Notes: a model not told the origin generated them from the sequence alone. Positions 8,996 through 62,160 are shown, counted from the first letter of the stretch. The stretch is 64,000 bases of DNA from Patescibacteria group bacterium (GCA_028711655.1 JAQTRU010000001.1:6648-70647); one strand, 5' to 3'. A program made the numbers and translations.

Positions 8996-9023
8996 CCAAC
9001 TAATCTGCTAATTTAATATAACT

Positions 9024-11199: not shown

Positions 11200-11214
11200 A
11201 AGATAATCCAAATC

Positions 11215-11290
11215 TACGAATTTATCCGAATGCCCCGAATGCTTTGATTTAGGAATTCGGAGCATTCGGATAAAATTCGGATTAATTCGG
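11215..11290. repeat. Palindromic array of the word attcgga/gaatgc
   Basis: ccgaatgctttgatttaggaattcggagcattcggataaaattcggattaattcggattacg; same word family as at 60530-60625. Confidence 0.7.
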
Positions 11291-11291
11291 A

Positions 11292-14200
11292 TTACGACTT
11301 CCTGAATTCGCAAATATCTTTAAAATCGCAAAACTGGCAAAGCGCGGAAGGCTTTGGCGGAAATTCGCCTTTTTTTATGGCGGCAATGGTGTTTATGATC
11401 TTTTCTTTTGTTTTGTCCAGCTCATCCTGGCTGCCCAGAAATTCAACTTCAGTATTGTTGTCCAAATAATAAAAGGCCAAAGAATCTACTTTTTGCCGAA
11501 AAAGCTCCTCGGCGGCCAACTGATAAATTAAAAGCTGATATTTTTCGTCAAGGCTTAATTTGTCTTTCGGGGTTCCGGTTTTATAGTCAATAATTTTTAT
11601 TTTGCCTGCCCCGTTGCTGCGGTGGCCGTTTATCTCATCAATCCTGTCCATTACCCCGCGCACGGTATAGAGCTCGTTGCCGACCCTGACCTTGGAATTA
11701 AATCCTTTTTCCAGAAAAATCACGTTCGGCCATGCATCTTGATGCTTTTCATAAAACTTCTTTAAAATTTCCTTGCCTTTCTTTTTATATTCCTCTTTCC
11801 GCGCCTTGGTCTCATACCAATCGTCAATCCAGCTCTGCTCGTATAATTTTAAAATTTCTTCCAAACTGATTTTAACATTTTTTTTGGCTGCTTGCGTTGA
11901 ACTTGCCGAAGCACCAAATAAATCCGTCTGCTCCCGCTTCTTTCTTTCCTCGATTAAACTGAATAATTTCTGCAAAGTAATGTGCAAGGTTTTGCCAAAA
12001 GAAAAAACATGTTTTCCCCGGACCGGAATTCTTAAAATATGGGCAAAACGGTATTGGTAAGGACAATTGGAAAACGCCGCCAATTGCGTATAAGAAAAAT
12101 AAGACGGCACCACCGACTTTACAACCTCTTTTGCCGGAACAGAAATTCTTGTCTTTAAAATATCGCCATCTTGTATTTTTGCCTGCCCCTCGAAGCCCTG
12201 GCGCAGTAGGGTGTTTTTGCCTGCCCCTCGAAGCCCTGGCGTAGCGGGGTATTTTTGTGTTTTTGTGTTTTCTTGAACAAACCCGCATTCCTCTAAAAAA
12301 CGAGAAGGTTTTTTGAGTCGAGCGCCGCCATAGTCAGCCGCCCAAGAAAAATATAAATCGTTTTTTGCCCGCGTCATGGCTACGTAAAACAATCTTCTTT
12401 CCTCTTCTAAATGGATATCGCCTTCCGGTAAAATTTCCTTGACTAAAGCGTCCGGAATGGCAATCTGCTCGCTTCTCTCAATCGTGGGAAAACGCTTATC
12501 AACTAAACCGGCAATAAAAACATACTTAAATTCCAATCCCTTGGCCCCGTGAACCGTCATTACTTTTATGGTTTCCGGACCGGCCTCCCAGTCAACCGGC
12601 ATCGCCCCTTCTTCCCCGGCGTCAATTTCCATCTGCAGTTGGGCCAAAAACGCTTTAACGCTTCTATCGTCACTGCCCTTTTCAAATTCCTCAACCCGCT
12701 TCATAAACTGGTTAAGACAGGAAGCCGCCTCCCGGCTTTTTTGCTCATCTTGGCTCATCAGATATTTCAAATAACCGCTGTCATTTAAAAAAACAAAAAT
12801 AATTTCACTGGCGTTTTTATCTCTGGCGAGGCCGGCATGCTTATCAATTAAAGATAAAACCGCGACCACTTTCTTCTGCAATTCCGGCCCCAGATTTAAA
12901 GCGGAGACATTGCGCAGAACTTCATAAAGCGACCAGGCTTTTTTATTGGCCCAATAATTAAAATTAACCAACTCGTTATAGGTAAACTTAAAAATCGGCA
13001 GGTTTAAAACGCGATAAGCCGCCGCGCTTTCATGGTAATCGTCCAATAATTTTAAATAAGCGATTATGTCCATTATTACCGGCTTGGCATAAAGGCCGCG
13101 GGAAGATAAAAATTGGTAGGGCAATTCGGCCGCGGCCAAAAATGAGCAAATTTCTTTCGCGCTTTCATTGGCTCTGACCAAAATCGCAAAATCGTCCCAA
13201 GTAGAATTTTTATCCTTAATTTTTAAATCCGCGATTTTCTCAATTACCATTCTTATCTCCTCATTCAAATCTTTGCCTTCTATAACTTCTATCACCCCCT
13301 CCCCCTTATTATCAGCTACCAGCTTTTTGCTTAATTCCGTTTTTGTGTTTCTGCTCGCCCCTCGAAGCTTTAGCGTAGTGGGGTGTTTTTGTGTTTTTGT
13401 GTTCAGTTGATACTCCAGCCGATTCGGGTCATTTTGCTTGATAAATTTATAAGACAAATTCAGAATATTCTGCTTATTGCGGTAATTATTGATTAAAAAA
13501 ATCTGCCCGGCCCGCGAATAATCTTTTTGAAACTGCAAAATATTAGATACCGAAGCCCCGCGAAATTTATAAATTGACTGGTCATCATCGCCAACGACCA
13601 CTAAGTTATTTTTCGGGGCGGCCAGCATTTTTATCAGCTCATACTGCGCCCAGTTAGTATCCTGAAATTCGTCCAGCAGTATATATTTAAATTTATCCCG
13701 ATATTTTTTTAAAATCGCCGGCCGGGCGCGGAATAATTTCAAGCAGTAGTTTATTAAATCTCCGAAATCCAAAGAGCTGCTGTCTAAAAGCAGTTGCTGG
13801 TAAACATGATAAGCGTTCGCCACTTCGTTTATCCTTGCCACTTCCTGACTTGCTATTTCTTTATTAAACTCACCTCTTTCTGTCATTGCGAGTCCCGAAG
13901 TCTCGGGACGAAGCAATCTCTGGTTAGACGCGCTTGACCGGAGATTGCCGCGTCGCTCGTTGCGCTTCGCTCCACTCGCTCCTCGCAATGACATATTAGG
14001 GGCTCCGCTCAACATATTGTCTAAATTTTCCTTCAACTCATTAGCGTATTCAAGATACTGGGCCGGATTTATATCCTCGTCTTTGGTCCGGGAAAAATGC
14101 TTTATCAAGGCGCGGATAAATTTCGTCGGATTGCCCATCGGCCGATAATAATCCAGATCAAGTTTATCCAAATTATTTTTTATTAGAGCATATTGTTCAA

Positions 14201-17584: not shown

Positions 17585-17680
17585 CTTACCCACAAATCTA
17601 CAAACAATTTGACAAATGTACAAATATTATCCCTCCGTATTTGTAAATTTGTATTGGATTTGGAGATTTGTGGGAGCTAT
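17585..17680. repeat. Palindromic array of the acaaat / atttgt word directly upstream of the M16 peptidase start
   Basis: caaatctacaaacaatttgacaaatgtacaaatatta ... tttgtaaatttgtattggatttggagatttgtggg. Confidence 0.7.
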
Positions 17681-17691: not shown

Positions 17692-19065
17692 TTAGAAATC
17701 TTCTAAACCATCTCTCACCACCATACCAACAACAAACCAAGAAAACAAGACTCCAAAATGCAAACTCCAATACCAATGGTCAACCATCATTATTATAACT
17801 AAGCTAGCGAGAATAGACAAACCAAAATATTTTTTATTTTTTATTAAATTCCATCCCAAAAATCCTAAGAGTCCCAAAAATCCCAATAATCCTACCACCC
17901 CCACTTCCGCCCAAACCAATAAAAATACATTATGGACCGGCTGATAATTCCAGCTCTCCTGACCCGGTTTCATTTCCTTTAAAGCCAAGGTGTAATTTCC
18001 CATCCCGGCGCCAAATAACCAATTATTTTTTATTAACTCTTTAGCATCAACTAAAGACTCCTTTCTTTCCGTATTAGATTTAACTTCCAGTCTCGTATCT
18101 TTAGATAACCGCGTTAAAACTAAATTATTGTAAAAATTAAATAAAATAAAAACTAAAATCCCGGCCGCCAAAATTATTTTCAACAGTTCCCTCTGCTTTA
18201 AATAATCTTTCTTTATTAAAAATATAACCAGCATCAATAAAATTCCGACTATAACTCCGGCCCAAGCTCCGCGGGAAAAAGTGAAAAACAGCGCTAATAA
18301 AAATAATAAAATAATAAAATAATAAAATAACTTAAACCTTGTTTGAAAATTTAGAAATTTAAAATTGTTTGAAAATTGAAAATTGCCAGCCAGCGGCTGG
18401 TCCGCCTCTGGCGGAAAAATTGAAAATTTATTAACTAAAAAACAAATTACTATCAATACGCCCGCAACTAAAATCCCTCCCAAAACATTCGGATGATCCA
18501 ATCCCCCATAAGCCCGAAGCCACCTTTCGCCAATCCCATCAGCGCCAATTGTTTCCACAACCGAAACCCCGAGTTCAGCCGGATTATGCATCGCCATTCC
18601 CAACCACTTAGAGGCAAAACTTGATTGGGATAAAAATTGGTAAATCCCCAAACCGGCTTGAAAAAAAATTCCCGCCAACAAGCTCCACAACAATTTCATT
18701 CTGTTATAATTCGCGCTCGTCACGAGCCAAAACAATCCCACCCCCAATAAAAACCAACCGTATTTATACAAGGCCAGCCATTTGTCAGAAGCAGAAAATA
18801 TAGAAATAAAAATAAATAAATCCAAAACCGCTATCACCCACCAAATTTTTGAAAATTTAGAAATTGAAAATTGTTTGAAAATTGAAAATTGAAAATTGAA
18901 AATTACGAATAATAATAGGAGCGCCAGCAAAATTATATCTACCCCATACAAACTATACGTCGCATATTCCGTCTCTCCGGCCCTGATAATCCACCTCGTC
19001 TGCCAAGGCAGTAAGAAAATTAATAAATACAAACCATATTTAATTATTTTTTCCAGTATTGTCAT
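17692..19065 (-). CDS. O-antigen ligase/polymerase (Wzy_C-like) polytopic membrane protein
   Basis: More than 10 TM segments and a large periplasmic loop with WLRAYGGLDHPNVLGGILVAG. Carries two in-frame word-repeat insertions. Confidence 0.55.
   Translation of the reverse strand: MTILEKIIKYGLYLLIFLLPWQTRWIIRAGETEYATYSLYGVDIILLALLLLFVIFNFQFSIFKQFSISKFSKIWWVIAVLDLFIFISIFSASDKWLALYKYGWFLLGVGLFWLVTSANYNRMKLLWSLLAGIFFQAGLGIYQFLSQSSFASKWLGMAMHNPAELGVSVVETIGADGIGERWLRAYGGLDHPNVLGGILVAGVLIVICFLVNKFSIFPPEADQPLAGNFQFSNNFKFLNFQTRFKLFYYFIILLFLLALFFTFSRGAWAGVIVGILLMLVIFLIKKDYLKQRELLKIILAAGILVFILFNFYNNLVLTRLSKDTRLEVKSNTERKESLVDAKELIKNNWLFGAGMGNYTLALKEMKPGQESWNYQPVHNVFLLVWAEVGVVGLLGFLGLLGFLGWNLIKNKKYFGLSILASLVIIMMVDHWYWSLHFGVLFSWFVVGMVVRDGLEDF
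18290..18420. repeat. Intergenic-type cassette inside the CDS: aataaaat array, gaaaatt array and GATCCGCCTCTGGCGG hairpin
   Basis: aataataaaataataaaataataaaataa ... gtttgaaaatttagaaatttaaaattgtttgaaaattgaaaatt gccagccagcggctggtccgcctctggcgg. Confidence 0.7.
18838..18905. repeat. gaaaatt tandem array inside the CDS
   Basis: ttgaaaatttagaaattgaaaattgtttgaaaattgaaaattgaaaattgaaaattacg. Confidence 0.7.
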
Positions 19066-26989: not shown

Positions 26990-28603
<1,614 letters not shown>

Positions 28604-28718
28604 TCTAGGGAGATATTCGGTGAAAAAAACGAATGTGTCGACCTACTTAAATTTTTATAAAATCTAGGTGGGAAATTGGCGCCTGCTAGCTTTGAAATTT
28701 TGATCATCAAATAAAAAA

Positions 28719-28808: not shown

Positions 28809-29804
28809 CTAATTAATCCCCATTCTCTCTTTTACTCTTCTTAAAGTTTCATCCGCAATCGGCTTAACTTTCTTTGCCCCGTCTTCCATGATTTTTTTCG
28901 CTTCTTTATCACTAATTATTTTATACCTTTCCTGGAAATCTGCCAAGAACTTCTTTACCACTTCGGCCAAATCTTTTTTAAAGTCGCCGTATCCCTTGCC
29001 CCGGTATTTAGCTTCCAGTTTTTTTATTGGCTCATCAGAGAGTAAAGAATAAATAGTCAACAGATTAGAAATTGCCGGCTTGCTTTTTGGGTCATATTTA
29101 ATTTCCGAACCGGAATCAGTTACGGCCTTCATAATTTTTTTAGCCGCCGCTTCCGGATTATCCGTTAAGCCAATAAAATTATATTCGCTTTCTGCGCTCT
29201 TGCTCATTTTCTTGCTCGGGTCGTCCAGGCCCATAATCCGCGCTCCTTCTTTTCTAATAACCACTTCCGGAATTTTAAACGTTTCACCGAATTGCGAATT
29301 AAACCTACGCCCTAAAGTCCGACAAAGTTCAACATGCTGGGCCTGGTCTTCTCCAACCGGCACGGCATCGGTATTATAAAGTAAAATATCCGAAGCCATT
29401 AAAACCGGGTAATCAAAAAGGCCGATCCCAACATTTTCCTGTCCTTCTCCGGCCTTATCTTTAAACTGGGTCATTTTATTTAAATCGGAAATCCGGGCTA
29501 CGCAATTTAAGATCCAAGTTAATTCCGTGTGCGCGCTAATATCAGACTGCTGGAAAATAATTGATTTTTTCGGGTCAATGCCGGACGCTAAATAAATTTT
29601 AGCCACTTCTATAATTTTTTTCTTTAGCGCTTCTGGGTCCTGCTTAACCGTAATGGCGTGATAATCAACCACGCAAAAAATGCATTGATTTTTCTCCTGC
29701 ATTACCACCCACTGGGCAATCGCGCCCAGATAATTGCCAAGATGCAGATTGCCGCTGGGTTGGACCCCGGAAAAGACTATAGGTTTATTAAGCATAATTA
29801 TCAA
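28809..29804 (-). CDS. trpS: Tryptophanyl-tRNA synthetase
   Basis: GNLHLGNYLGA (HIGH region) and KMSKS. Confidence 0.9.
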   Translation of the reverse strand: MIIMLNKPIVFSGVQPSGNLHLGNYLGAIAQWVVMQEKNQCIFCVVDYHAITVKQDPEALKKKIIEVAKIYLASGIDPKKSIIFQQSDISAHTELTWILNCVARISDLNKMTQFKDKAGEGQENVGIGLFDYPVLMASDILLYNTDAVPVGEDQAQHVELCRTLGRRFNSQFGETFKIPEVVIRKEGARIMGLDDPSKKMSKSAESEYNFIGLTDNPEAAAKKIMKAVTDSGSEIKYDPKSKPAISNLLTIYSLLSDEPIKKLEAKYRGKGYGDFKKDLAEVVKKFLADFQERYKIISDKEAKKIMEDGAKKVKPIADETLRRVKERMGIN

Positions 29805-29807
29805 ATT

Positions 29808-29852
29808 ATATAGTATTCGTATATTCGTAAATAATTCGTAATTCGTAGGAAT
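29808..29852. repeat. attcgta element copy upstream of trpS, ~36-nt near-identical to 37806-37843
   Basis: tattcgtatattcgtaaataattcgtaattcgtagg. Confidence 0.75.
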
Positions 29853-29894
29853 ATACTATTATTGTAATTTAATTATTGGTTTTAAGCAAGAAAA

Positions 29895-29930
29895 AGGTGG
29901 AGACAAGACGGCATCTCGTCTCCACCTAAA
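29895..29930 (-). terminator. Terminator of the small zinc-ribbon gene pair
   Basis: GGTGGAGACaagacggcatctcGTCTCCACC followed by T5 on the minus strand. Confidence 0.6.
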
Positions 29931-29934
29931 ACCA

Positions 29935-30072
29935 TTACTGCCTGCCGTTCCGTTTTTGGAACTGGCTCTTTCTAGCGCTTTTGTCGCATTTCGGACAACG
30001 CTTTACGGTTTTGCCGCCGGGCAAATAGAACGTTTGAATTCTTTCACCATGAACACTGCATTTCTTAGCCAT
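29935..30072 (-). CDS. Small zinc-ribbon protein (45 aa), not in the ORF track
   Basis: MAKKCSVHGERIQTFYLPGGKTVKRCPKCDKSARKSQFQKRNGRQ with SD GGAGAAGG. Coordinates +/-1. Confidence 0.5.
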   Translation of the reverse strand: MAKKCSVHGERIQTFYLPGGKTVKRCPKCDKSARKSQFQKRNGRQ

Positions 30073-30087
30073 AAATCCTTCTCCTAA

Positions 30088-30291
30088 TTACCCATTACAA
30101 AAACCACCTGATGGTGAAGAACCAGACTCCCCGCTTGTACCACCTACAGGAGTGGTAAATCCGAAACCAACGGAATTACGCGGTTTATCTCTTCCTGTAC
30201 TTGTCTCTTTCTTTTGCCCGCATACCAAACAAACGCCGTCAATGACTCTACCGCCGCAACCAGGTTTAGAACAAATTAATTCTTCAGCCAT
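30088..30291 (-). CDS. Small zinc-ribbon protein with Gly/Ser-rich tail (start at MAEEL)
   Basis: MAEELICSKPGCGGRVIDGVCLVCGQKK... with SD GGAGG. Confidence 0.5.
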   Translation of the reverse strand: MAEELICSKPGCGGRVIDGVCLVCGQKKETSTGRDKPRNSVGFGFTTPVGGTSGESGSSPSGGFCNG

Positions 30292-30369
30292 GATAGGCCT
30301 CCATGTTAAGAATGAACAATTAAATATACAATGAATGAACAATTCCTTTCCGCATTAGTCCGCATCAGT

Positions 30370-30690
30370 CTGTATTAGTCCGTGAAAAGAAAAAAGCTTC
30401 CCATCTCTTAAGCATAACTAAATCATGCTCAAGGGACGAAAAGCTTTTGCTTTACGCGGTACCACCCCTTTTCCCGCCAAACTTTTGCGAACAAAACTTA
30501 GGCGGGCACTTTTACTGACTCTGACCCCTCTCGACAAGCTCAGGGCGACATCAGTTAGCCCATGATTACGGAGGCAACCGGGTCTTCACTCTCGCAAAAA
30601 CCACCCTTCCGCCAATTGACGGATAATTCAGGCCCAACCCCCTGCAAAAAAGCAGAGGACCTGAATAGGTTTTATTGTTTTTAAACTACT
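30370..30690 (-). ncRNA. Candidate structured RNA or long structured 5' leader upstream of the zinc-ribbon genes; identity unresolved
   Basis: ~300-nt GC-rich island with no ORF and multiple stems (CCTCTGC-T6-GCAGGGG; GGCGGGAAAAGGGGTGGTACCGCG...). A P4-like GAAGACCCGGTTGCC / GGCAACCGGGTCTTC segment is ambiguous for RNase P. Confidence 0.3.
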
Positions 30691-30743
30691 AAATACAGAA
30701 TAACATAATAAAAAATTCTATCAAATAACTGGGTTTATTTATC

Positions 30744-31331
30744 CTATTTTGCCTCCTCTAATTGATACCACTTAACATGATAATGAATTTTCTCTTCCTG
30801 GCCGTCCGGAATTTTATTTATATTAGGAATTCTAGAATCCGGACTATTTTCTCGATACACTACCTTAAGACTATTACCGATAGTTCCTTCAACTACCAAC
30901 AACATAGATTTCTCTATCCATCTACTAAATTTTTTTTCGTCTTCTTCTAAATCCTGTCTTGCTTTCTTCAGTCCATCTTCACCTAATCCCCCTCCATATT
31001 TTTTCTCAACATCAATTAAAGTTGGCCTTTGCTTTTTTTCTCTATCTTCTCGCGGAAACACTACTAATTTGTCAAGTTCTCCCATGTCTTTAAAAAAACC
31101 AAAAAACCGAACTTCTGTCTCGGGGTCTATTTTTTCAGACGCTGAAGGAATTACCTTTAAACCTCCTTCGGGATCAATCTTAGCCCTATCTACTTTACCG
31201 TCAGATATAATAAACGCGCCCTCCCTCCCGGGTATTTCAAATAAAGCCTCGGAATAATTAGGAATATCCTTTATTTTATATTTTTTGCCAACTTCCAATG
31301 GCGCGGGCATTTGGTTTGGTTGTTCTTTCAT
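30744..31331 (-). CDS. Hypothetical cytoplasmic protein, Lys/Glu-rich
   Basis: 195-aa ORF with no recognisable motif. Confidence 0.4.
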   Translation of the reverse strand: MKEQPNQMPAPLEVGKKYKIKDIPNYSEALFEIPGREGAFIISDGKVDRAKIDPEGGLKVIPSASEKIDPETEVRFFGFFKDMGELDKLVVFPREDREKKQRPTLIDVEKKYGGGLGEDGLKKARQDLEEDEKKFSRWIEKSMLLVVEGTIGNSLKVVYRENSPDSRIPNINKIPDGQEEKIHYHVKWYQLEEAK

Positions 31332-31515
31332 AATTTTTAACTTTCAAGTACACAATAGCATAATAAAAAAAATTTTGTCAATCACGGCTCGCTCACAATC
31401 CCCTTTAGCAGAGCCGTAGTCCCCCAACCCCGCCGCTGGCGGGGTTAACGGGAGACCATGATTGAACCAATCCTTTTAGAGAAGGCCCTGCCAGAGCGAA
31501 AAGAATAAAAATTTA

Positions 31516-32583
31516 TCACCCGCGCACACAACGAACATAGAGGTTGTAGATTTTGCCGGTGTAGTCCACGAGGCCGTAGCCGAAACTCACGCCCCAGGCG
31601 CTGGTGGTATTGTGAACAACGGTAGTAGAAGACCAATAATAAGTGTTGCTGCCGGGGTTGGTATTAGGGAAATAAGTGGTATTGATGGCTGGCAGAGAAT
31701 TCTGATAATTCACGATGCTCATTAGCTCTTTTACATTTGGCAATCTCCAATTATTATAACCACCAAAAATCAAATTTTGGCATTGGCTTAGAGCATTTTC
31801 CCAGTTAACATTATTGACGTATCCGGCGCAGTTGGTTGTTGAAGTATCCGGCTCCGTGCATTTCTTCCACATCAAACCCGTGCAGTTATCAGTTATAGTA
31901 CCGTTGCCATTGTCTGTGAAAGAAGGATTGCAGGTGGAAGGACTGTTGGCAGAGGTATAATCATTATCTTCGCCATAAGTTGCGGTATAGCTTGAAGTCT
32001 GACCGGTATCAGGAAGAGTTTTAATCCCTGTATAAATCCCTGCCAGGCCAAATATGGTAACTCCGCTTTTAATATTGCCGGCGGCTAAGTCAGTATCTAA
32101 GGCGCTCTTGCTAGTTTGGTTAATAAAGCATTTTCCGCCATTGTTATCAGTACAATCGGTCAGGGTATTACTAGCCAAATCAACTAGATTATTCCAGTTA
32201 GCTTCGGTTAAGGTATCACTAGAAGCTGTAGCTCCGGTAGCCTCGGTATCGCAGTTGCTGCCGCATTTATTGTGAATTTCATTAACAAAAGTATTCCAAT
32301 TACTTTGGCTAAGCTGGCCTGAATCATTAGTTTTAGCGTCATTCCAGGCTGCGTAGACATAAGTAGCGCCAATGGCTAGGAATATTCCGAAAATTAGATA
32401 AATCAGCCGGGAAGAAATAAATCCCGCACCTTTCAGCAGAGCATCAAACCTCGCCGAAAGAATTTTGCCTAAATCCTTCATCCCCGCAACAAAGCTACGA
32501 AATATTAAGGAAAGGTGCGGGATAAATTTTAATGTTTTTTTAAAAATGTTTTTCATATTTTTATTGAGATCGTAGTACCCCAA
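31516..32583 (-). CDS. Secreted/anchored Cys-rich protein with C-terminal DUF1566 (Lcl/C-type-lectin-like) domain
   Basis: N-terminal TM anchor, then WRLPNVKELMSI...YWSSTT...AWGVSFGYG...VRCVRG. The last ~45 aa are N/T/Y/S-rich. Confidence 0.6.
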   Translation of the reverse strand: MGYYDLNKNMKNIFKKTLKFIPHLSLIFRSFVAGMKDLGKILSARFDALLKGAGFISSRLIYLIFGIFLAIGATYVYAAWNDAKTNDSGQLSQSNWNTFVNEIHNKCGSNCDTEATGATASSDTLTEANWNNLVDLASNTLTDCTDNNGGKCFINQTSKSALDTDLAAGNIKSGVTIFGLAGIYTGIKTLPDTGQTSSYTATYGEDNDYTSANSPSTCNPSFTDNGNGTITDNCTGLMWKKCTEPDTSTTNCAGYVNNVNWENALSQCQNLIFGGYNNWRLPNVKELMSIVNYQNSLPAINTTYFPNTNPGSNTYYWSSTTVVHNTTSAWGVSFGYGLVDYTGKIYNLYVRCVRG

Positions 32584-32609
32584 TGGGAGACTGCGACTGA
32601 GTTAAATTT

Positions 32610-33458
32610 TTAATAAATATAACACACGCATGTTGCCCATGATTCATAATTATTTCTGTAACAACCAACACGATTATCTCCGCCACCAGTATATACTGTG
32701 AAATCGTTTCCACCAGTATTACATGTGTTGCTACAAACAGTCCCAACAGTGCATGAATAATCTGAAGTACAATCACTGGGATAGCATTTAACTCCTGTAG
32801 ATGCTAAAGTACCAGCAACCCCAAAAATAGTTACTCCACTTTTTATATTTCCAACAGCCAAATCACTATCCATAGCGGAAAAAGTGGAAGTGTTCATATA
32901 GCAATAACCATTATTGCTAGCGGCCGAACAGGCATTGGCATTAACGTATTTAGCCGTATCATCAACATAACAATTAGTTTTGGTGGTCGTAGTTGAATCA
33001 GCGCATTCCGAGCCAAAAGCATAATAGCTGTTGTCAGTCGGAACAAAACATTGGTTTTCTTTAGCTTCATTACATAAATCAGTCGTCAGATAGCGGGCAG
33101 TAGTATCAACATAGCAGTTTGTTTGGGTGGTGGTAGTTGATTCTCCGCATTCCGTAGAATACCACTCTCCGGCCGTAGTCATCCGATTGGTAATATATTC
33201 CAGCCGTTCTACGATAGAGCCATCTTTATTGGTTGCCACCAAGGACGAGTCAAAATCATTATTCGCGTTGTTGGCGCCCAAAATATTCTGGGTAAAATCC
33301 TGGTCCGAATCCGTTGGCCCGGCGCTTGGTTCAACAAAAGCGGCGTAAACATAAACGGTAACAACCGCGGTTAAGGTTAAAATAACCGTAGTAATTATGC
33401 GCCAGCCAATTCTTCCTAGATAGTCATTCAGTTTGGTTTTTAAGATTTGGTTATCCAT
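32610..33458 (-). CDS. Paralogous secreted Cys-rich protein (shares the TM/SAGPTDSDQDF N-module and the DLAxGNIKSGVTIFG motif)
   Basis: MDSDLAVGNIKSGVTIFGVAG vs LDTDLAAGNIKSGVTIFGLAG in the neighbour; more than 25 Cys. Confidence 0.55.
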   Translation of the reverse strand: MDNQILKTKLNDYLGRIGWRIITTVILTLTAVVTVYVYAAFVEPSAGPTDSDQDFTQNILGANNANNDFDSSLVATNKDGSIVERLEYITNRMTTAGEWYSTECGESTTTTQTNCYVDTTARYLTTDLCNEAKENQCFVPTDNSYYAFGSECADSTTTTKTNCYVDDTAKYVNANACSAASNNGYCYMNTSTFSAMDSDLAVGNIKSGVTIFGVAGTLASTGVKCYPSDCTSDYSCTVGTVCSNTCNTGGNDFTVYTGGGDNRVGCYRNNYESWATCVCYIY

Positions 33459-33464
33459 CCAAGT

Positions 33465-33600
33465 TTTAAATTATCAATTATCAATTTTCTAATTTTCAAT
33501 CAATTACCAATTAACAAATTTTCAATTGATAATTTAATTATTGAAAATTCATTAATAATTGAGACTTGAAAATTGAAAATTTTATCTCGTCCTTATCCAT
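33465..33600. repeat. Palindromic array of the tcaatt / gaaaatt words between the paralogs
   Basis: ttatcaattatcaattttctaattttcaatcaattaccaatt ... ttgaaaattcattaataattgagacttgaaaattgaaaatttta. Confidence 0.7.
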
Positions 33601-33617
33601 TTTCGCTTTTTGCTTCT

Positions 33618-33908
33618 TCAACGGCTGTCCAAATAATCAATAACATATTCTAACCTCTCAATAATGCTACCGTCATTATTGACCACCACCAAAGACGAGT
33701 CAAAATCATTATTCGCGTTGTTGGCGCCCAAGATATTTTGGGTAAAATCCTGGTCAGAATCAGCCGGCCCGGCCGAGGGTTCGATAAAAGCGACGTAAAC
33801 ATAAACGGTAACAACCGCGGTTAAGGTTAGAATAATAACCACAATGGCCTTTTTGCCTAATTCTTTTAGATTTAAGAAATTTATTATTTTTTTAACAAAA
33901 TTTTTCAT
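33618..33908 (-). CDS. Truncated duplicate (N-terminal 96 aa) of the 32610-33458 paralog
   Basis: ~190-bp near-identical DNA (33655-33840 vs 33225-33400). Confidence 0.45.
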   Translation of the reverse strand: MKNFVKKIINFLNLKELGKKAIVVIILTLTAVVTVYVYVAFIEPSAGPADSDQDFTQNILGANNANNDFDSSLVVVNNDGSIIERLEYVIDYLDSR

Positions 33909-34018
33909 ATTTAGATTGCCTATAGCAAAAAATAATCAGAAAAACTACTTTGGTTATCTGAACTTATTTTATCATTATTTTAAAATAATCTCAATATTAA
34001 AAACGCGCTCCGCAAACA

Positions 34019-34047
34019 TTGACAATTAGATTAATCTCCCCTATAAT
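34019..34047 (+). promoter_or_regulatory. clpP promoter (sigma-70 consensus)
   Basis: TTGACA-17 nt-TATAAT. Confidence 0.7.
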
Positions 34048-34098
34048 CTAAACATAAAAAATAAATAATTTTTTATTTTTGATTTCTAATTTTTAATT

Positions 34099-34686
34099 TT
34101 GAAAGATATGCCTTTAATTCCAACAGTTATAGAAAAAGACGGACATGTGGAACGGGCTTATGATATCTATTCCCGGCTTTTAAAAGACCGGATTATATTT
34201 TTAGGCGAGCCTATCACCGACCATGTCGCCAATATCATTATCGCCCAATTTCTGTTTTTGGACGCCGAGAATAAGGACCGGGACATAAAATTTTATATCA
34301 ACTCTCCGGGCGGATCAGTCACGGCCGGTATGGCGATCTATGACACCATGCAATATGTCAAATCCGATGTCTCCACAATTTGTGTCGGCATGGCCGCTTC
34401 TATGGGCGCCACCTTGCTCGCTGCCGGAGCCAAAGGAAAAAGGTTCGCTTTGCCCAATTCGGAAATTATGATCCACCAGATTATGGGCGGAGCCGAAGGC
34501 CAAGCTGTTGACATAAAAATCAGGGCCGAACATATCCTGAAGATAAAAGACAAAATGAATAAAATCCTGGCTTTCCATACCGGGCAAAAAATCTCCGCAA
34601 TTGAAAAAGACACTGACCGCGACCGCTTTATGGATGTGGAAGAAGCGAAAAAGTACGGCATCATTGATAAAATAATTACGAGGTAA
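34099..34686 (+). CDS. clpP: ATP-dependent Clp protease proteolytic subunit
   Basis: [20 protein letters not shown] (Ser) ... MIHQ (His). Confidence 0.9.
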
Positions 34687-34703
34687 TTTTCATTTTCTTG
34701 TTG

Positions 34704-34742
34704 GGAGCTCAACTCCGGGGCCTCGGAGTTGAGCTCTTTTTA
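34704..34742 (+). terminator. clpP terminator
   Basis: ggagctcaactccggggcctcggagttgagctcttttt. Confidence 0.7.
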
Positions 34743-34837
34743 GTTTATTGCCAGATGCCGTTTTCTTGTTTCACCGCTTCAAGCATGATATAATATGATT
34801 ATCGGCCAATAATGGCTGAAAAAACAAGGAGGTTAAT

Positions 34838-34930
34838 GTGAGACCCAAAATCGGCGTAGTCTTTCTTCCTGAAGCGCAAGGCAAAGCCAACGAGAGTCTG
34901 TCGCAGAATTTCCCGAATCCGTTCAACTGA
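34838..34930 (+). CDS. Candidate 30-codon small ORF with strong SD, own -10 element and terminator
   Basis: -10 TATAAT at ~34781; SD AAGGAGG; GTG start; VRPKIGVVFLPEAQGKANESLSQNFPNPFN; terminator 34947-34987 (gggtagacttgctaaacgcgagtctaccc+T7). Confidence 0.3.
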   Translation: MRPKIGVVFLPEAQGKANESLSQNFPNPFN

Positions 34931-35005
34931 TGGCTGTTCCGGTGCAACAAGGGGTAGACTTGCTAAACGCGAGTCTACCCTCTTTTTTTATTTTATTGAA
35001 TAAGT

Positions 35006-35040
35006 TTAGGGACTTAGTCGCCACAGAGGCGACTAAGTCC
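35006..35040. repeat. REP-like palindrome R2, second copy at 55389-55423
   Basis: AGGGACTTAGTCGCCacagaGGCGACTAAGTCCCT. Confidence 0.8.
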
Positions 35041-35365
35041 CTATATTTCAGAATGTGATGATTCTTTTTCCCCATTCAATCTTGATTTTCCAAGCTCTTT
35101 ACAAACCTTAAATCTTATGCTAAGATAATTTTACAAACTTAAATTAAATTAATAACGAATAGTGTTGTTAGGAAAAGGAATAATTTTTTAAAGATTTTTC
35201 CAATATCATCGGACAAACCCAATAAATTTGTGAAAATAACTAATTACTCTAGAATATTCTCTGGAACAAAAATCAAAAAATCGTTTGTCGGCCTTAATAA
35301 TTTAGGGCTTATTGTATTGCGAAAAAACAATTAAATTCAACCTCCTGACAACAGAAATAAATTCT

Positions 35366-36880
35366 ATGGAATATGCGATCTACCTTATTCTGGCTGTGGG
35401 CGGTTTTTTTATTGGCTACTGGTTAAGAAAAAGAAAAGCTTTAAGCGAAATTAACAGCGCCGAGGCTCGCGCCGAAAAAATTCTAAACGACACCAAGGTT
35501 AAACAAAAAGAGTTGCTGCTCGTTGCCCAGGATAAAGCTTTGAAAATCATTGAGGAAGCAAAAAAAGAGGAGGGACAAAGGCGAAAAGAAATAAATAACC
35601 TGCAAACCAGACTGGAAAAAAGGGAAACCGCTTTTTCCCAAAAATTATTGGAATTGCAGGAAAAGCAACAGCAGCTTTTTGACAAAGTCAACAGAGTGGA
35701 GGAAGTAAAGGAAAAAATAAAACAAATCAAAGAGGAGCAGATGGTAAAACTGGAAAAAATCGCCAAGATGACAAAAGACGAGGCCAAAGAAGTTTTGTTA
35801 AAAAATGTCGAAGAAAAAGTAAAAGAGGATCTGCTTGTCCGCATTAATAAGTTGGAAAAAGAAGCTACGGAGACTATAGATGAAAAAGCCAAAGACCTGA
35901 TGACCGGGGCTATGCAACGCCTGGTTTCTTCCTACACTCCGGAAATAACAACGACCACGGTTGATTTGCCAAACGATGAAATGAAGGGCCGGATTATCGG
36001 CCGGGAAGGCCGCAACATTAAAGCGATTGAACAAATAACCGGCGTGGAAATTATCGTGGATGACACGCCGAACGCCATTACCATCTCCGGCTTCTCACCC
36101 ATAAGGCGACACATTGCCAAAAGGGCTTTGGATTATTTAATTAAAGACGGACGGATCCATCCGACCAAAATTGAAGAAGCGATTGAAGAAGCGAAAAAAG
36201 AACTGGCTTTGGATATTAAAAAAGCCGGGGAAGAAGCCATGTATGAAATCGGTGTGGCCGGCCTTGACCCGAAATTAGTCCAGATTATCGGCCGCTTGAA
36301 ATACCGCTCCAGCTACGGGCAAAACGCCCTTGGCCATTCCATAGAAGTGGCCCATCTTTCCGCTCTTTTAGCCGAGGAATTAAAAGCCGATGTGACCTTA
36401 GCTAAAAAAGCCGGTTTGCTTCATGATATTGGAAAAGCCGTTGACCATGAAGTGCAAGGGACTCATCCGGAAATCGGCCGCGATATCGCCAAAAAATTCA
36501 ATTTGCCCCAAGAAGTTATTGATCCGATTGAAACTCATCACGACGACCATCCGCGCGGCCTGACTGCCGTAATCGTTAAAGTGGCAGACGCGATTTCCGC
36601 GGCCCGTCCAGGAGCCCGTTATGACACTTATGAACGTTATATCCAGCGCCTGGAAGAACTGGAAAAAATCGCCACTTCTTTCCCGGGAGTGGAAAAATCT
36701 TACGCGATTCAGGCCGGACGCGAAGTAAGGGTTTTTGTCATGCCAGAAGAAATTGACGATTTGAAATCTCATGATTTGGCCCGCGACATAGCGAAAAAAA
36801 TAGAAGAAGAGTTGAAATATCCGGGAGAAATAAAAGTTAATGTTATCAGGGAAATGCGGGTAACGGAATATGCGCGCTAA
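35366..36880 (+). CDS. rny: Ribonuclease Y (TM anchor, KH, HD)
   Basis: MEYAIYLILAVGGFFIGYWL, KH GRIIGREGRNI, HD LLHDIGKA. The ORF track starts 18 codons earlier. Confidence 0.9.
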   Translation: MEYAIYLILAVGGFFIGYWLRKRKALSEINSAEARAEKILNDTKVKQKELLLVAQDKALKIIEEAKKEEGQRRKEINNLQTRLEKRETAFSQKLLELQEKQQQLFDKVNRVEEVKEKIKQIKEEQMVKLEKIAKMTKDEAKEVLLKNVEEKVKEDLLVRINKLEKEATETIDEKAKDLMTGAMQRLVSSYTPEITTTTVDLPNDEMKGRIIGREGRNIKAIEQITGVEIIVDDTPNAITISGFSPIRRHIAKRALDYLIKDGRIHPTKIEEAIEEAKKELALDIKKAGEEAMYEIGVAGLDPKLVQIIGRLKYRSSYGQNALGHSIEVAHLSALLAEELKADVTLAKKAGLLHDIGKAVDHEVQGTHPEIGRDIAKKFNLPQEVIDPIETHHDDHPRGLTAVIVKVADAISAARPGARYDTYERYIQRLEELEKIATSFPGVEKSYAIQAGREVRVFVMPEEIDDLKSHDLARDIAKKIEEELKYPGEIKVNVIREMRVTEYAR

Positions 36881-36884
36881 CGCG

Positions 36885-36962
36885 CTAGTAGAAAGTTATA
36901 AAGTTGAAAGTTATAAAGTCTTACTTTCAACTTTATAAACTTTATAACTTTATGAACTTATT
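36885..36962. repeat. aagttataaagtt palindromic element between rny and ymdB
   Basis: gaaagttataaagttgaaagttataaagtcttactttcaactttataaactttataactttatg overlapping the ymdB start. Confidence 0.75.
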
Positions 36963-37743
36963 ATTTCTCGGCGACATTAACGGCAAAATCGGCCGGCAAG
37001 CCGTGGCTAAAATTTTACCCAAACTAAAAAAGTCTAAAAAAATAGACCTCGTTTTTGCCAATGCGGAAAATATCGCCCACGGCACCGGCGTAACCGAAGA
37101 TACCTTGAAAGAATTAAAAGAGGCCGGCGTGGATTATTTTACCGCCGGCGACCACGCTTTTGATAAAATAAAACAGATTGATTGCTATGAAAAATTTCCG
37201 ATTATCCGGCCGGCCAATTTTCCGAACGGAGCGCCGGGGCAGGGTTATGCGGTTTTGGAAAAAGGAAAATATAAAATATTGCTAATTAATCTTATTGGCC
37301 GGGTATTTATGGCCCAAGATTACGACTGCCCTTTTAGGGAAGTGGATAAAATTCTGGCTAAGTTTGCAAAAAAAAGCGTATCTGCTATAATTATTGATAT
37401 ACATGCCGAAGCGACTTCGGAAAAAATTGCCTTAAAACATTATTTGAACGGACGAGCCAGCGCCATTGTCGGAACTCATACGCATGTTATGACTGCGGAC
37501 GCGGAAGTTTCCAAGGAAGGAACAGCTTATATAACGGACATCGGCATGGTTGGTTTTGCTGACGGCTGCATCGGGGTCGATAAAGAAGGTATTATAAAAA
37601 CTTTCTTAACCCAGATGAAACAACCGCACTTCATACCGGAAAACGGACGGACAATCTTTAATGCCGTTTTAGCCGAAATTAATCCTAAAAATGGAAAAAC
37701 CAAAAGCATAAAACCGATAATTAAAACTACTAATATAGAATAA
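36952..37743 (+). CDS. ymdB: YmdB-like 2',3'-cyclic-nucleotide phosphodiesterase (calcineurin-like metallophosphoesterase)
   Basis: MNLLFLGDINGKIGR; conserved rny-ymdB synteny. Confidence 0.75.
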   Translation: MNLLFLGDINGKIGRQAVAKILPKLKKSKKIDLVFANAENIAHGTGVTEDTLKELKEAGVDYFTAGDHAFDKIKQIDCYEKFPIIRPANFPNGAPGQGYAVLEKGKYKILLINLIGRVFMAQDYDCPFREVDKILAKFAKKSVSAIIIDIHAEATSEKIALKHYLNGRASAIVGTHTHVMTADAEVSKEGTAYITDIGMVGFADGCIGVDKEGIIKTFLTQMKQPHFIPENGRTIFNAVLAEINPKNGKTKSIKPIIKTTNIE

Positions 37744-37845
37744 CCCTACGAATTACGAATATATACGAATGTACGAATTCCCCAATAAACGCCTTAATTT
37801 AATATTCGTATATTCGTAACGAATTCGTAATTCGTAGAATAAAAA
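37744..37845. repeat. attcgta palindromic element upstream of hup
   Basis: cctacgaattacgaatatatacgaatgtacgaattcc ... tattcgtatattcgtaacgaattcgtaattcgtag. Confidence 0.75.
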
Positions 37846-37846: not shown

Positions 37847-38131
37847 ATGAATAAGGCAGGATTAATTGAAAAAATAGCCGAAGCCGCGGCCGTAACGAAA
37901 AAACAGGCTGAGGACATGATTGAAACTTTGGTAAAAACCATTGTCTCCGAATTAAAATCCGGGGGCGAGGTGACCATTGCCGGTTTTGGCACGTTTCTGG
38001 CCAGAACCCGCCACGCCCGGGGCGGTGTTAATCCGCAGAAACCGACGGAAAGAATTAAAATCCCTGAAGTAAAAGTGGCAAAATTCAAAACCGGAAAAAA
38101 TTTAAAGGACGCTTTAAAAGGCAAAATATAA
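37847..38131 (+). CDS. hup: HU-family DNA-binding protein
   Basis: MNKAGLIEKIAE ... GFGTFLARTRHARGGVNPQ. Confidence 0.9.
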   Translation: MNKAGLIEKIAEAAAVTKKQAEDMIETLVKTIVSELKSGGEVTIAGFGTFLARTRHARGGVNPQKPTERIKIPEVKVAKFKTGKNLKDALKGKI

Positions 38132-40221: not shown

Positions 40222-40278
40222 CAAAGAATTTCAGATTTATGATTTTAGATTTTAGATTTAAATCTGAAATCGGCAATC

Positions 40279-42522: not shown

Positions 42523-42585
42523 ATGGATAATTTTACCCTATTTTTAGTAAAAAAACAAGTTTAAATAACTATCATCATAAAAGTA

Positions 42586-42614
42586 TTGACATATTATATA
42601 AACTATGCTATATT
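42586..42614 (+). promoter_or_regulatory. Promoter of the 42661 gene
   Basis: TTGACA-17 nt-TATATT. Confidence 0.55.
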
Positions 42615-49825: not shown

Positions 49826-49930
49826 ATTTATTACAAATACACAAATATTATCACAAATAACACAAATAAAAAAAGATGCTGTATAAAATTTGTGAATTTG
49901 CGTTTTGATTTGTGAATTTGTAATTATATT
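49826..49930. repeat. acaaata / tttgtga palindromic array ending 3 nt before the folD ATG
   Basis: ttacaaatacacaaatattatcacaaataacacaaataaa ... tttgtgaatttgcgttttgatttgtgaatttgtaatt. Confidence 0.75.
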
Positions 49931-50802: not shown

Positions 50803-50903
50803 CTTAAATAATAAAATATTAAAATAATATGAAAATAAAATAAAAAGATAAGAAGTGCTATTTTTAAATTATTTTATTATTTTTTTATTTTATTTTTAAA
50901 ACC

Positions 50904-52181: not shown

Positions 52182-52240
52182 CCACGGACTTATGCGGACT
52201 GACGCGGACTCAAGCGGAAATTAAAATAAAAAAGCCCGGC

Positions 52241-53200: not shown

Positions 53201-53229
53201 TTGTCAACAGGAGAATGGCTAAGTATAAT
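53201..53229 (+). promoter_or_regulatory. recQ promoter
   Basis: TTGTCA-17 nt-TATAAT. Confidence 0.6.
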
Positions 53230-53259
53230 TTGTAAATTTGTAAAAGATTTGTAATTTGT

Positions 53260-55374
53260 ATGAATATAAAAAAACAACAACTTCTGGAACTCCTTGAAAT
53301 CCATTATGGTTTTAAAAATTTCTGGCCGGGCCAGGAAAAAGCCATTGATAATATTTTAGCCGGTTTAAGTTCGGTCGTTATTATGCCGACCGGCGGGGGC
53401 AAATCTTTAATTTACCAACTCCCGGCTCTAATCTTGGACGGAGTCACGATTGTTATTTCTCCTTTAATCGCTTTAATGAAAGACCAGGTGGACAATTTGA
53501 AAAAAGTCGGCATCCCGGCCAATTTTGTCAATTCTTCAATTTCTCCCGATGAGACTTATGAACGGCTGGAAGAGGTGAAAAAAAATCAGTATAAGCTTCT
53601 TTTTATTGCCCCGGAAAGATTTTATAATCAGGAATTCGTAAAAACCCTAACGGACATCAAAGTAAGTTTATTTGCCATAGACGAAGCTCATTGCATCAGC
53701 CAATGGGGACATGATTTCCGTCCCAGTTATTTAAAGTTAAAGAACGCCCTTGACCTAATTGGCAATCCGCCGGTGGTGGCTTTAACCGCGACCGCCACGC
53801 CGGAAGTCCGGGAAGATATTGTAAAGCAGCTTAATTTAAAAAACCCGGAACTGATAATAACCGGCTTTGCCCGGCCAAACCTCCAATTCGGAGTTATTCA
53901 AGCCAGTGACGCGCAAAAACCCAGTCTGGTTTTGGATGCTTTAAAATCTACCGAAGGATCCGGAATTGTTTATGTGGGCACCCGAGCCAAAGCCGATGAC
54001 TTGGCCCGGACTTTGCTGGAAGAAGATATTCCGGCCGTGGTCTATCATGCCGGCATGGATCCTTCTGACAGAACCTGGGTGCAGGAAAATTTTATGGCGG
54101 GAAAAGTAAAGGTAATTGTGGCCACTAACGCTTTTGGCTTGGGAATTGATAAAAAAGATATCCGCTTTGTCATCCATTATGACATGCCCGGAACGATCGA
54201 AGCTTATTATCAGGAAGCGGGCCGGGCGGGGCGGGACGGCAAACCCAGCTTTTGCCTCCTTCTTTACTCTCCCCGCGACCGTTATTTGCGCGAATTCTTT
54301 ATCAAAGGCGATAACCCTCCGCCTAATATCATCTTGGAAATCTACAAAATTTTAACTGACTACGAGTCAGATACGGTTTTAATCACTTATGCCGACTTGG
54401 CCGAAATGCTTTCAGACAACGTCCCGGAAATGGCTATCGGCACCTCTTTAAAAATCCTGGAACGGGAAGGATATATCAGCCGGCCCAACGAAAAAACCGC
54501 TAATGCTTTTTTAAAGCTAAGCAAGGATTTTGCCTCTGTTCTAGACTCCTTTGGCAGCCGGGCTAAAACCAAAATTGATATATTCCACAAGCTCTATGAC
54601 CGCTTCGGGCAAGATTTAGAAGCTGGCTGGAATTTTTCTTTTGAAGAAGCCGCCGGCATGATTAAAGTAAAAAAGGAGTCTTTTGTCCGTTTAGCGCGCC
54701 ATCTGGCGGAAAATAATTTAGCCGAATATCAACCGCCGTTTCGGGGAACAGAAATTAACATTTTAAAAAGGGTTGATCCGGGCGAACTAAAAATTGATTT
54801 CACCGCCTTAAAAGAAAAATTAAAAAGAGCTTATGCCAAGTTGGACAAAATGGAAGACTATATTTATTATTTTGGCTGTCGGCAGGAATATATTTTGAAA
54901 TATTTCGGGGACGCCAATGCCAAAACCTGCGGAAAATGCGATAACTGCTTAACTGCCGGCGGCTACGAAAGGAAGCGCCAACAGCCGCGGGGAAAAAATC
55001 GTGAGGAAAAAATTTCTAAAAATAATTTGGATGACATGGTGGAAAAACCGAGTTCCAAACCGGCCTTGAGCACGAAATTAACCCAGCTGGAAACTTTTGA
55101 CTTATACAATAAAGGCCTGGCGATTGAGGCTATTGCCGAGGAGCGGAAATTAACCGTTGGCACAATTGTCGGGCATCTTATTTTTTTAATGGAAAAGAAA
55201 CTAATTAGATTTGAAGAGATTAATAAATTAGTTGACAATAATAAGCAAAAAAAAATAAAAGCCGCTATAGCCAAAGTCGGCGCGGAAAAATTAAACCCAA
55301 TAAAGGAAATCGTCGGGGAAGAAATCAGCTACGAAGAAATAAAATTAGTTTTAGCAAAAAAGAAAAATTCTTAA
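53260..55374 (+). CDS. recQ: ATP-dependent DNA helicase RecQ
   Basis: [14 protein letters not shown], Zn-binding Cys cluster [12 protein letters not shown]...CGKCDNC, and HRDC-like C-terminus. Confidence 0.9.
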
Positions 55375-55388: not shown

Positions 55389-55423
55389 AGGGACTTAGTC
55401 GCCACAAAGGCGACTAAGTCCCT
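55389..55423. repeat. REP-like palindrome R2 copy
   Basis: AGGGACTTAGTCGCCacaaaGGCGACTAAGTCCCT. Confidence 0.8.
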
Positions 55424-62054: not shown

Positions 62055-62160
62055 AAGTTACGAATTACAAATCTTATACAAATATTACAAATAATTAAAA
62101 AACGATTATTTTGGTATTTGTAAAATTTGTAATGAATTTGTAATTTGTAACTAAGACAAC
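62055..62160. repeat. acaaata / atttgtaa palindromic array ending 13 nt before the ppsA ATG
   Basis: gttacgaattacaaatcttatacaaatattacaaataatt ... ggtatttgtaaaatttgtaatgaatttgtaatttgtaac. Confidence 0.75.

Follow-up and report, generated by a model that had tools for sequence, protein, structure and literature searches.

Introduction

Direct repeats of the heptamer TAACTGA are known from marine Beggiatoaceae, Cyanobacteria and some Bacteroidetes, where they lie just upstream of start codons and have been proposed to act in translation, with S1, Csp or CsrA as candidate readers (MacGregor 2015, PMC4679880), and contiguous heptamer repeats have been described in Nostoc (bioRxiv 10.1101/2022.06.06.494920). 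The present work concerns arrays of another heptamer, ATTYGTR, in a stretch of 64,000 nucleotides (nt) from a Patescibacteria group bacterium (GCA_028711655.1, JAQTRU010000001.1:6648-70647), referred to below in its entirety as the window, in which two near-identical arrays are found upstream of trpS and hup. Like the TAACTGA and Nostoc repeats, these are short sets (2-6 units; four per arm for ATTYGTR) of a 7-nt unit in intergenic DNA. As with TAACTGA, they are mostly in forward orientation a few nt from a start codon, usually without a canonical ribosome-binding site (the antisense copy at trpS is an exception), precede unrelated genes including those of ribosomal proteins, are distributed patchily across phyla, and are here proposed to act post-transcriptionally. 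The unit itself is different, its spacing is irregular and conserved (8/11/7) instead of contiguous, and its hosts are mainly Patescibacteria; furthermore, at least 72% of the ATTYGTR arrays belong to inverted-pair hairpins with a conserved internal loop, in contrast to one inverted repeat among 170 sets in a Beggiatoa genome (PMC4679880). No account of ATTYGTR arrays was found in the literature on promoters and repeats in Patescibacteria or the candidate phyla radiation, or on the sequences themselves, and no family of Rfam 15 reaches its gathering score at the arrays, the use of E-value thresholds yielding only sub-threshold likeness to eukaryotic microRNA precursor hairpins; the four-heptad family is apparently undescribed so far.

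Parts of this design are shared by several well-known elements. Among the repetitive extragenic palindromic (REP) sequences with their BIME and REPIN forms, the enterobacterial repetitive intergenic consensus (ERIC) sequences and the Correia palindromes, some affect mRNA stability or, in the case of Correia, are cut by RNase III. The ATTYGTR pairs are likewise dispersed extragenic palindromes of ~100 nt, often between genes that would be co-transcribed, and may similarly be transcribed into hairpins; they differ in that their arms are tandem heptads, that only the heptads are common to the copies, that the unit spans distant lineages, and that neither target-site duplications (TSDs) nor, in the ~850 kb around arrays, an associated transposase was seen. 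The RNase III signals of phage T7, e.g. R1.1, are intercistronic hairpins with an upper stem, an unpaired internal loop and a lower stem. The ATTYGTR hairpin resembles them in its intercistronic position and in an internal loop kept unpaired, at which cleavage would leave an upstream hairpin and a short downstream leader; unlike R1.1, it has stems of 15 bp each made of repeated heptads, exists also as single arms, and is not known to be cleaved. Ribbon-helix-helix repressors use heptad or octad operators, such as the WATCACW heptads of omega from pSM19035 and the metboxes of MetJ, which are arrays of 7-8-bp units, direct or inverted, near gene starts. Those operators are contiguous and serve few promoters of one regulon, whereas ATTYGTR precedes, by extrapolation, ~100 unrelated genes per genome and shows irregular spacing and covariation of its arms. 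Finally, the integron attC site is an imperfect palindrome, situated between co-directional open reading frames (ORFs), that folds with its boxes paired and its central spacer unpaired, the terminal loop being variable. The likeness to attC is one of architecture only, as the genes flanking the ATTYGTR pairs are syntenic housekeeping genes and not cassettes, the R-box consensus GTTRRRY is absent, and no integrase is found nearby.

Results

Arrays at trpS and hup

An earlier note on this DNA, made from its sequence, had reported a near-identical attcgta element in the promoter regions of trpS and hup. The two arrays (A and B in Table 1) are identical at 31 of 33 positions, both differences falling in the 4-nt spacer, and have in common the start-to-start spacing of 8/11/7 nt, a preceding T and a trailing G(G)AATA. 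The coordinates given previously need small corrections, those of the hup copy (37806-37843) being shifted by a few bases. The reverse-complement partner said to complete a palindrome at hup is also present (array C) and, in its minus-strand reading, has the form ATTCGTA C ATTCGTA TAT ATTCGTA ATTCGTA with a spacing of 8/10/7; the RNA fold predicted for both arms and the loop reaches -37.4 kcal/mol (z = -8.8). ATTCGTA occurs 20 times in the window as against 8.47 +/- 3.2 expected, a number reached in 0 of 100 shuffles, and 12 of the 20 copies are contained in arrays A, B and C.

The gene names were upheld: trpS (28809-29795, minus strand) encodes a class I Trp/Tyr tRNA synthetase according to Pfam, with homologues named tryptophan--tRNA ligase, and hup (37847-38131, plus strand) an HU-type protein (PF00216). 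Two points qualify the earlier description. The hup pair is situated between the stop codon (37743) of the upstream neighbour ymdB, coding for a YmdB-type metallophosphoesterase, and the hup start codon, array C beginning 3 nt past that stop codon, which makes this a gap between cistrons rather than a demonstrable promoter. Array A is antisense to trpS, with its 5' end 19 nt from the trpS ATG at 29795, and the trpS mRNA would therefore carry UACGAAU x4; no reverse-complement units are visible in the sequence around 29815-29847.

Table 1. Positions of the ATTYGTR arrays and associated features in the window
Feature	Position	Strand	Remarks
ATTTGTR inverted pair	17591..17672		arms ~17591-17625 (-) and 17639-17672 (+); z = -4.4
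Array A, trpS	29815..29847	+	ATTCGTA-T-ATTCGTA-AATA-ATTCGTA-ATTCGTA; single four-heptad array without inverted partner
Sigma-70-like promoter candidate TTGCTT-N17-TACAAT	29861..29889	-	upstream of the trpS array
Array C, 5' arm of hup hairpin	37747..37778	-	TACGAAT x4 on the plus strand
Loop of hup hairpin	37779..37803	+	25 nt
Array B, 3' arm of hup hairpin	37804..37836	+	ATTCGTA-T-ATTCGTA-ACGA-ATTCGTA-ATTCGTA; GAATAAAAAT and then the hup ATG (37847) come next
ATTTGTG/ATTTGTA inverted pair	49832..49922		arms 49832-49867 and 49888-49922; z = -2.8
Single array	53228..53260	+	ATTTGTA-A-ATTTGTA-AAAG-ATTTGTA-ATTTGTA; abuts the ATG of the RecQ-like helicase gene
Inverted pair	62059..62149		arms 62059-62092 and 62116-62149; three ATTTGTA and one ATTCGTA facing four ATTTGTA; z = -7.7

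A dispersed family of four-heptad arrays

In all, ten ATTYGTR arrays were counted in the window, distributed over six loci; the seven beyond A, B and C are of the same design but built from ATTTGTR. The pair at 17591 separates the end of an O-antigen-ligase-like ORF from an M16 peptidase gene (ATG at 17577, minus strand), that at 49832 the glyA stop codon (49821) from the folD ATG (49933), and that at 62059 the stop codon of a DUF4870 gene (62054) from the ATG of a gene for a PEP-utilising enzyme (62161). Directly 5' of the single array at 53228 stands TTGTCA-N17-TATAAT, so that the array would make up most of the 5' untranslated region (UTR).

Scanning the GTDB species genomes with the strict pattern ATTYGTR-N-ATTYGTR-N4-ATTYGTR-ATTYGTR returned at least 120 stretches, and a looser scan (at most one mismatch per unit, flexible spacers) of the listed GTDB loci and the window yielded 215 arrays; the array statistics below are drawn from the GTDB matches listed together with the window. 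A metagenome scan with the hup 5' end gave two loci only. It is clear that the trpS and hup copies are members of a dispersed, lineage-wide repeat family and not the two-copy coincidence that the earlier note had allowed for. Judged by record title, the hosts among the matches listed are nearly all Patescibacteria (mostly Moran-, Falkow-, Parcu-, Berkel-, Buchanan- and Roizmanbacteria or unclassified), Bacteroidota and Omnitrophota accounting for a few; some automatically labelled metagenome-assembled genomes are titled "Gammaproteobacteria" or "Bdellovibrionales", labels that are unconfirmed. One Bacteroidota copy precedes a GldC-like gene, so that these are not mis-binned contigs. The strict arrays among the matches listed (n = 137) comprise 76 with C in every unit, 19 with T in every unit and 42 that are mixed; C and T units thus work together in one array, homogeneity still being favoured.

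Placement and polarity

Inverted pairs account for 102 of the 215 arrays. All 51 pairs are divergent, the reverse-complement arm coming first, and none is convergent. Among the remaining 113 apparent singles, 53 have at least three reverse-complement units on their 5' side, compared with one on the 3' side, and with these hidden partners the paired share is at least the 72% given above. Loop length varies between 0 and 70 nt, most often lying near 24 nt. In 59% of the arrays a T forms the first spacer, and the second is 4 nt long in 82% and purine-ended. The base 3' of the array is usually G and the next one A. As this is true of both arms, the resulting GAGA belongs to the element and is not simply a Shine-Dalgarno (SD) sequence. 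Of 49 pairs, 46 have CTAC...GTAG as their outer ends, a possible likeness to the GTAG head of REP elements that would suit a REPIN-like origin.

The forward (3') arm ends between -1 and 20 nt, mostly 4-14 nt, before the start of an ORF. A start codon is faced by one arm in 34 pairs, by both arms in 4 and by neither in 13; in the 4 pairs with two facing arms the element lies between divergent genes. In 23 of 27 cases, 2-10 nt separate the non-facing arm from the stop codon of the ORF that runs towards it, and the surrounding genes are co-directional in 35 of the 51 pairs, the inverted pair being essentially the whole intergenic spacer. The downstream genes are functionally unrelated housekeeping genes: those for the M16 peptidase, HU (hup), FolD (folD, after glyA), the RecQ-like helicase and the PEP-utilising enzyme in the window, and in other genomes genes for GroEL (groEL), L11 (rplK), L14 (rplN), S7 (rpsG), YchF, GAPDH (gap) and PolA among others. 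Only one of 22 tRNA genes in the loci has an upstream ATTYGTR array, at 37 nt. Arrays and SD-like motifs rarely co-occur, the latter being found in the window at 1 of 12 array-bearing gene starts as against 13 of 41 without an array. An SD-like motif within 18 nt is present at only 14 of all 53 gene starts of the window, although the 16S rRNA 3' end has CCUCC.

Predicted hairpin and covariation of the arms

All four ATTYGTR pairs of the window are predicted to fold as strong RNA hairpins (z = -8.8 at hup and -2.8 to -7.7 at the others). In a set of 26 canonical pairs, the two arms were found to covary. All 26 have a paired 1-nt spacer (A-U 20, U-A 5, C-G 1) and a paired first base beyond the array, the latter with four pair types, and the covariation score of 0.159 exceeds the 0.099 +/- 0.008 obtained on shuffling (0 of 500 shuffles). 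In the 4-nt spacers the opposite is seen: complementarity is shunned, with 0.41 pairable positions per pair instead of the expected 1.35 +/- 0.17 (0 of 5000 shuffles), and the positions adjoining the upper stem (columns 19-56 and 20-55) pair in only 3 and 1 of the 26. The structure so modelled would consist of a lower stem of at least 15 bp, a maintained 4x4 internal loop, an upper stem of 15 bp and a free terminal loop. Arm covariation together with unpaired 4-nt spacers is not explained by proteins binding each duplex arm independently, nor does an internal loop that is kept unpaired follow from a pure copying mechanism.

Orthologous sites and turnover

The history of the element can be followed at ymdB-hup. 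In relative L129 (YmdB 81% identical) the same 4+4 ATTCGTA pair is present with copy number and spacing unchanged; it differs from the window at 2 of 56 unit positions and 6 of 25 loop positions, GAATAAAAAT and the ATG being identical. In relative L135 (78%) the pair is reduced to 2+2 units, its flank being the same. In L127 (82%) the arms consist of TAATTAC units with perfect 7/7/7 spacing round a loop that is still homologous (CCAGCTA...CCTAATT), which points to a change in place and not to insertion; this swap of both arms round a retained loop represents a clear case of concerted palindrome evolution. In L131 and L132-134 (85%) the spacer is empty and 28 nt long, bringing the states of this site to four. 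At rny-ymdB, five different hairpin or array elements occur in five relatives.

Upstream of trpS, the block TTGCYTAAAAnCnATAATTAAATTACAATA, which contains the promoter candidate of Table 1, is invariant in four relatives, and it is the stretch between block and ATG that differs among them. Where the window has its TACGAAT x4 arm, CAGATT units forming an inverted pair are found in L121 (TrpS 91% identical), a GC-rich hairpin in L124, and in L126 an extra ORF that starts 8 nt past TACAAT. Taken together, the orthologous sites show elements that are long-lived at some positions and replaced in place at others.

Two observations concern the surroundings of these genes. Inside ymdB, ~450 nt before hup, a strong sigma-70-like match (37363-37391, plus strand; TTTGCA-17-TATAAT with an upstream TG, 10/12) could, by its sequence, be an internal promoter for hup. 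At 30429-30628 (minus strand), ~600 nt upstream of trpS, a T-box-leader-like RNA gives a full-length match that is conserved in relatives (E = 1.3e-7; 41.7 bits, the gathering score being 93); the interval between it and trpS is occupied by two small ORFs of the zinc-ribbon type, at 30291-30088 and at 30072-29935, together with a terminator-like hairpin at 29927-29895.

Discussion

A proposed structured RNA element ahead of the downstream gene

The ATTYGTR hairpin may best be considered as a transcribed, structured cis-element acting on the gene downstream, a reading to which a probability of roughly 45% can be given. Its most complete form (YACRAAT x4, a variable loop and ATTYGTR x4, fitted closely into the gap from a stop codon to the start codon that follows) would be transcribed and would fold into a hairpin of ~30 bp broken by the conserved 4x4 internal loop, so that the 3' arm, AUUYGUR x4, ends 4-14 nt ahead of the start codon. 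A transcribed context is indicated by the promoter-like block at trpS, by TTGTCA-17-TATAAT before the array at 53228, by the -10-like boxes that precede several single arrays in other genomes, and by the intercistronic position of most pairs. If the AUUYGUR arm always stands beside the start codon, the 51:0 polarity follows, because the complementary arm can then only lie upstream. The architecture, polarity and placement of the element, the covariation of its arms, its wide distribution and its turnover are shown by the sequences; that RNA and not DNA is the active form, and the role of the element as a whole, we infer.

The heptad arm would act post-transcriptionally as an SD-independent leader beside the ribosome-binding region, its heptads being read by a hypothetical conserved factor or by the ribosome, and the complementary arm would either mask it or create a double-stranded site for processing or stability. 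Two variants would fit the geometry. In the first, the hairpin hides the ribosome-binding region and a ribosome terminating 2-10 nt upstream of the element lifts the block, which would result in translational coupling. In the second, the hairpin would serve processing or stability in the manner of the T7 RNase III signals, with its internal loop kept open and cleavage leaving a leader of two heptads on the downstream mRNA. Single arms, e.g. that at trpS, would be half-elements, either 5' UTR arrays or leftovers of pairs. Pairing of the heptad with 16S rRNA was considered as a means of recognition and set aside, since the single match is of 6 nt (ACGAAU at 27528-27533, the equivalent of helix 17, complementary to the first six bases of AUUCGUA), which is about chance level.

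Several observations weigh against an RNA element of this kind. The covariation could arise partly from symmetrisation of palindromes at the DNA level. The strand test is weak, with transition mismatches G-U compatible in sense in 26 cases and in antisense only in 14 (p = 0.08), and the two unit substitutions of L129 favour the antisense strand, since they would leave A-C mismatches in a sense transcript and G-U pairs in an antisense one. The spacers of facing arms do not differ clearly in composition from those of non-facing arms. For 33 single arrays no partner unit exists, thus no hairpin is possible, and a minority of single arrays, trpS included, are antisense to the adjacent gene. Furthermore, since the ymdB-hup spacer of L131 and L132-134 is empty, the element can be dispensed with at this site in those relatives.

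A large part of bacterial diversity belongs to the Patescibacteria, which have tiny genomes, few recognisable regulators and an expression control that is almost unstudied. Extrapolated from six loci in 64 kb, the element would stand before about every tenth gene, among them genes for ribosomal proteins, chaperones and glycolysis. It could be used for predicting operon processing and translation signals, for better calls of start codons and in the search for the reader of the heptads, and it invites comparison with the heptamer arrays that are still unexplained in Beggiatoaceae and cyanobacteria. A far-reaching version, which we put forward as speculative and would consider rather improbable as a whole, is that the ATTYGTR hairpins form an unrecognised post-transcriptional control system across Patescibacteria, reaching into Bacteroidota and Omnitrophota: the ribosome or a conserved RNA-binding factor would load or bind at AUUYGUR x4 beside the start codon in a sequence-specific, SD-independent way, the complementary arm and the obligatory 4x4 loop would tie expression to upstream translation or endonucleolytic processing, and the other unit families of these genomes would be interchangeable variants.

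Alternative explanations

It is also conceivable, if unlikely, that the arrays are without function: slipped-strand duplication of 7-8-nt units and hairpin-templated (quasi-palindrome) repair would keep producing palindromes with tandem-repeat arms wherever such sequence is tolerated, and the ATTCGTA copies would be neutral or selfish. Heptanucleotides are reported to be the commonest long simple-repeat unit, which has been ascribed to slippage (Mrazek 2007, as cited in PMC4679880). The window itself has 23 regions with three or more copies of one 7-mer as against 0.67 expected, in many unit families, and the V1 region of its 16S rRNA contains a repeat-armed hairpin that is absent from relatives. 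The different elements of close relatives at one intergenic site, both rny-ymdB and ymdB-hup, and the perfect arms of L127 round a homologous loop would likewise be products of such a process. What it does not account for is that the unit and its irregular 8/11/7 spacing recur in more than 100 genome stretches of many lineages, that copy number and spacing have remained unchanged between the window and L129 despite loop divergence, that the polarity is 51:0, and that the 4x4 loop is kept unpaired beside paired neighbours, which is not expected from copying alone.

Doubtful, too, is a site acting as double-stranded DNA, where each four-heptad arm would be an operator or an outward-facing part of a core promoter, for a DNA-binding protein or RNA polymerase, and the pair a symmetric or bidirectional site. 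The heptads are indeed conserved while spacers and loops vary, the geometry is fixed and the arms are aimed at genes, in four pairs at two divergent ones. Weak matches to promoter elements exist as well: the junction TA-N-ATT of units 1 and 2 is -10-like, TTYGTA-N17-TAATTY suits the -35/-10 spacing, a promoter scan gave TTATCA-16-TATATT at 29798-29825, and TAGAAT-N6-ATG is found at hup. This last motif would suit a leaderless promoter at hup, a candidate that was rejected because the distance from array to ATG elsewhere is -1 to 20 nt and GAGA is also present on non-facing arms. The same variable distance and the lack of any conserved motif 5' of the arrays speak against DNA sites in general, as does the conservation of non-facing arms, which serve no gene. 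Independent duplex binding predicts neither the covariation of the arms nor the non-complementarity of the 4-nt spacers, and offsets of 0/8/19/26 bp would not fall on one face of B-DNA. The downstream genes are functionally incoherent, and orthologous sites are not conserved, since they change unit family or are empty, those of trpS carrying other inserts or none. The shared regulator-binding site proposed in the earlier note therefore survives only in a loose sense, through conserved heptamers in fixed geometry and orientation; a common regulon of trpS and hup is not apparent. Canonical TTGACA-17-TATAAT promoters are visible in several long intergenic regions of the window, e.g. at 34020-34050 and 42560-42600.

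The other proposal of that note, a MITE-like mobile palindrome (MITE, miniature inverted-repeat transposable element), or a REPIN-like one, moved by a transposase, is very improbable, for its inverted arms (terminal inverted repeats in 51 pairs), dispersed intergenic copies, and orthologous sites both filled and empty are offset by loops and spacers unrelated between copies of one genome (the spacers differ even between the arms of one pair, and there is no similarity over the whole length), by a unit conserved across the lineages named above where REPs are species-specific, by the arms swapped in place in L127, by the absence of copies from 2.9 million IMG/VR viral contigs, and by the absence of any enriched transposase or other gene family in the ~850 kb around arrays, whole genomes not having been searched. 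The gene families near arrays are common ones only, OmpR-type response regulators being present in 7 loci. Nor do the flanks show TSDs beyond chance: the lengths of flanking direct repeats in the 51 pairs equal those of a shuffled-flank control (29 with none, 14 with 1 nt, 5 with 2 nt and one each with 3, 5 and 7 nt). The repeats TATATTT at 49832-49922 and TTTAT in L031 would suit mobility, and TAGAATAA round the hup pair, with boundaries shifted, was another suggestive case; they are not general among the 51 pairs, and TSD-forming transposition is largely refuted.

Other repeat arrays of the window

Other units, 7-14 nt long, form short direct-repeat arrays in nearly every intergenic region of the window, e.g. 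at 6825-6965, 8897-9023, 11200-11300, 33459-33617, 36881-36951, 50803-50903 and 59330-59395, and many of these arrays are inverted pairs that abut start codons. Their units include AAGTTATAAAGTT, ATTCGGA, AATTTTC, AAATAAT and CAATTGACA, several of which suit the frame ATTnnnA, and these other unit families recur in other Patescibacteria. Arrays of the TTTCAGATTTTAGATT family are found directly 3' of tRNA-Met (40223-40270) and tRNA-Gly (59470-59512), and other arrays end 7-10 nt 5' of the same two genes.

The 16S rRNA gene (26991-28604, plus strand) has ~100 extra nt in its V1 helix at 27061-27169, predicted to form a hairpin of -79 kcal/mol (z = -12.6) in which GCGGACT / AGTCCG units make up the arms as three 11-nt repeats; a 14-nt hairpin takes its place in relatives whose 16S is 90-96% identical. 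Arrays of the AGTCCGC unit also occur at ~30340-30380, 52186-52222, 56880-56916 and 61669-61713.

Two longer palindromes are repeated as well. The GC-rich 20-nt palindrome CCTGCCTNCCGGNAGGCAGG is present in four copies (39457, 39746, 40279 and 48238, plus strand; 0 expected), three of them beside tRNA genes. The 35-nt palindrome AGGGACTTAGTCGCCACARAGGCGACTAAGTCCCT occurs twice in long intergenic regions, at 35008-35042 and 55389-55423, and the former site carries different GC-rich hairpins in relatives. Finally, arrays of GAAAATT type and a GC hairpin (18343-18385 and 18849-18901) fall within an uninterrupted ORF of 457 amino acids (17692-19065, minus strand) with a C-terminal O-antigen-ligase (Wzy_C) domain; either these repeats were inserted in frame or the ORF has been joined wrongly.

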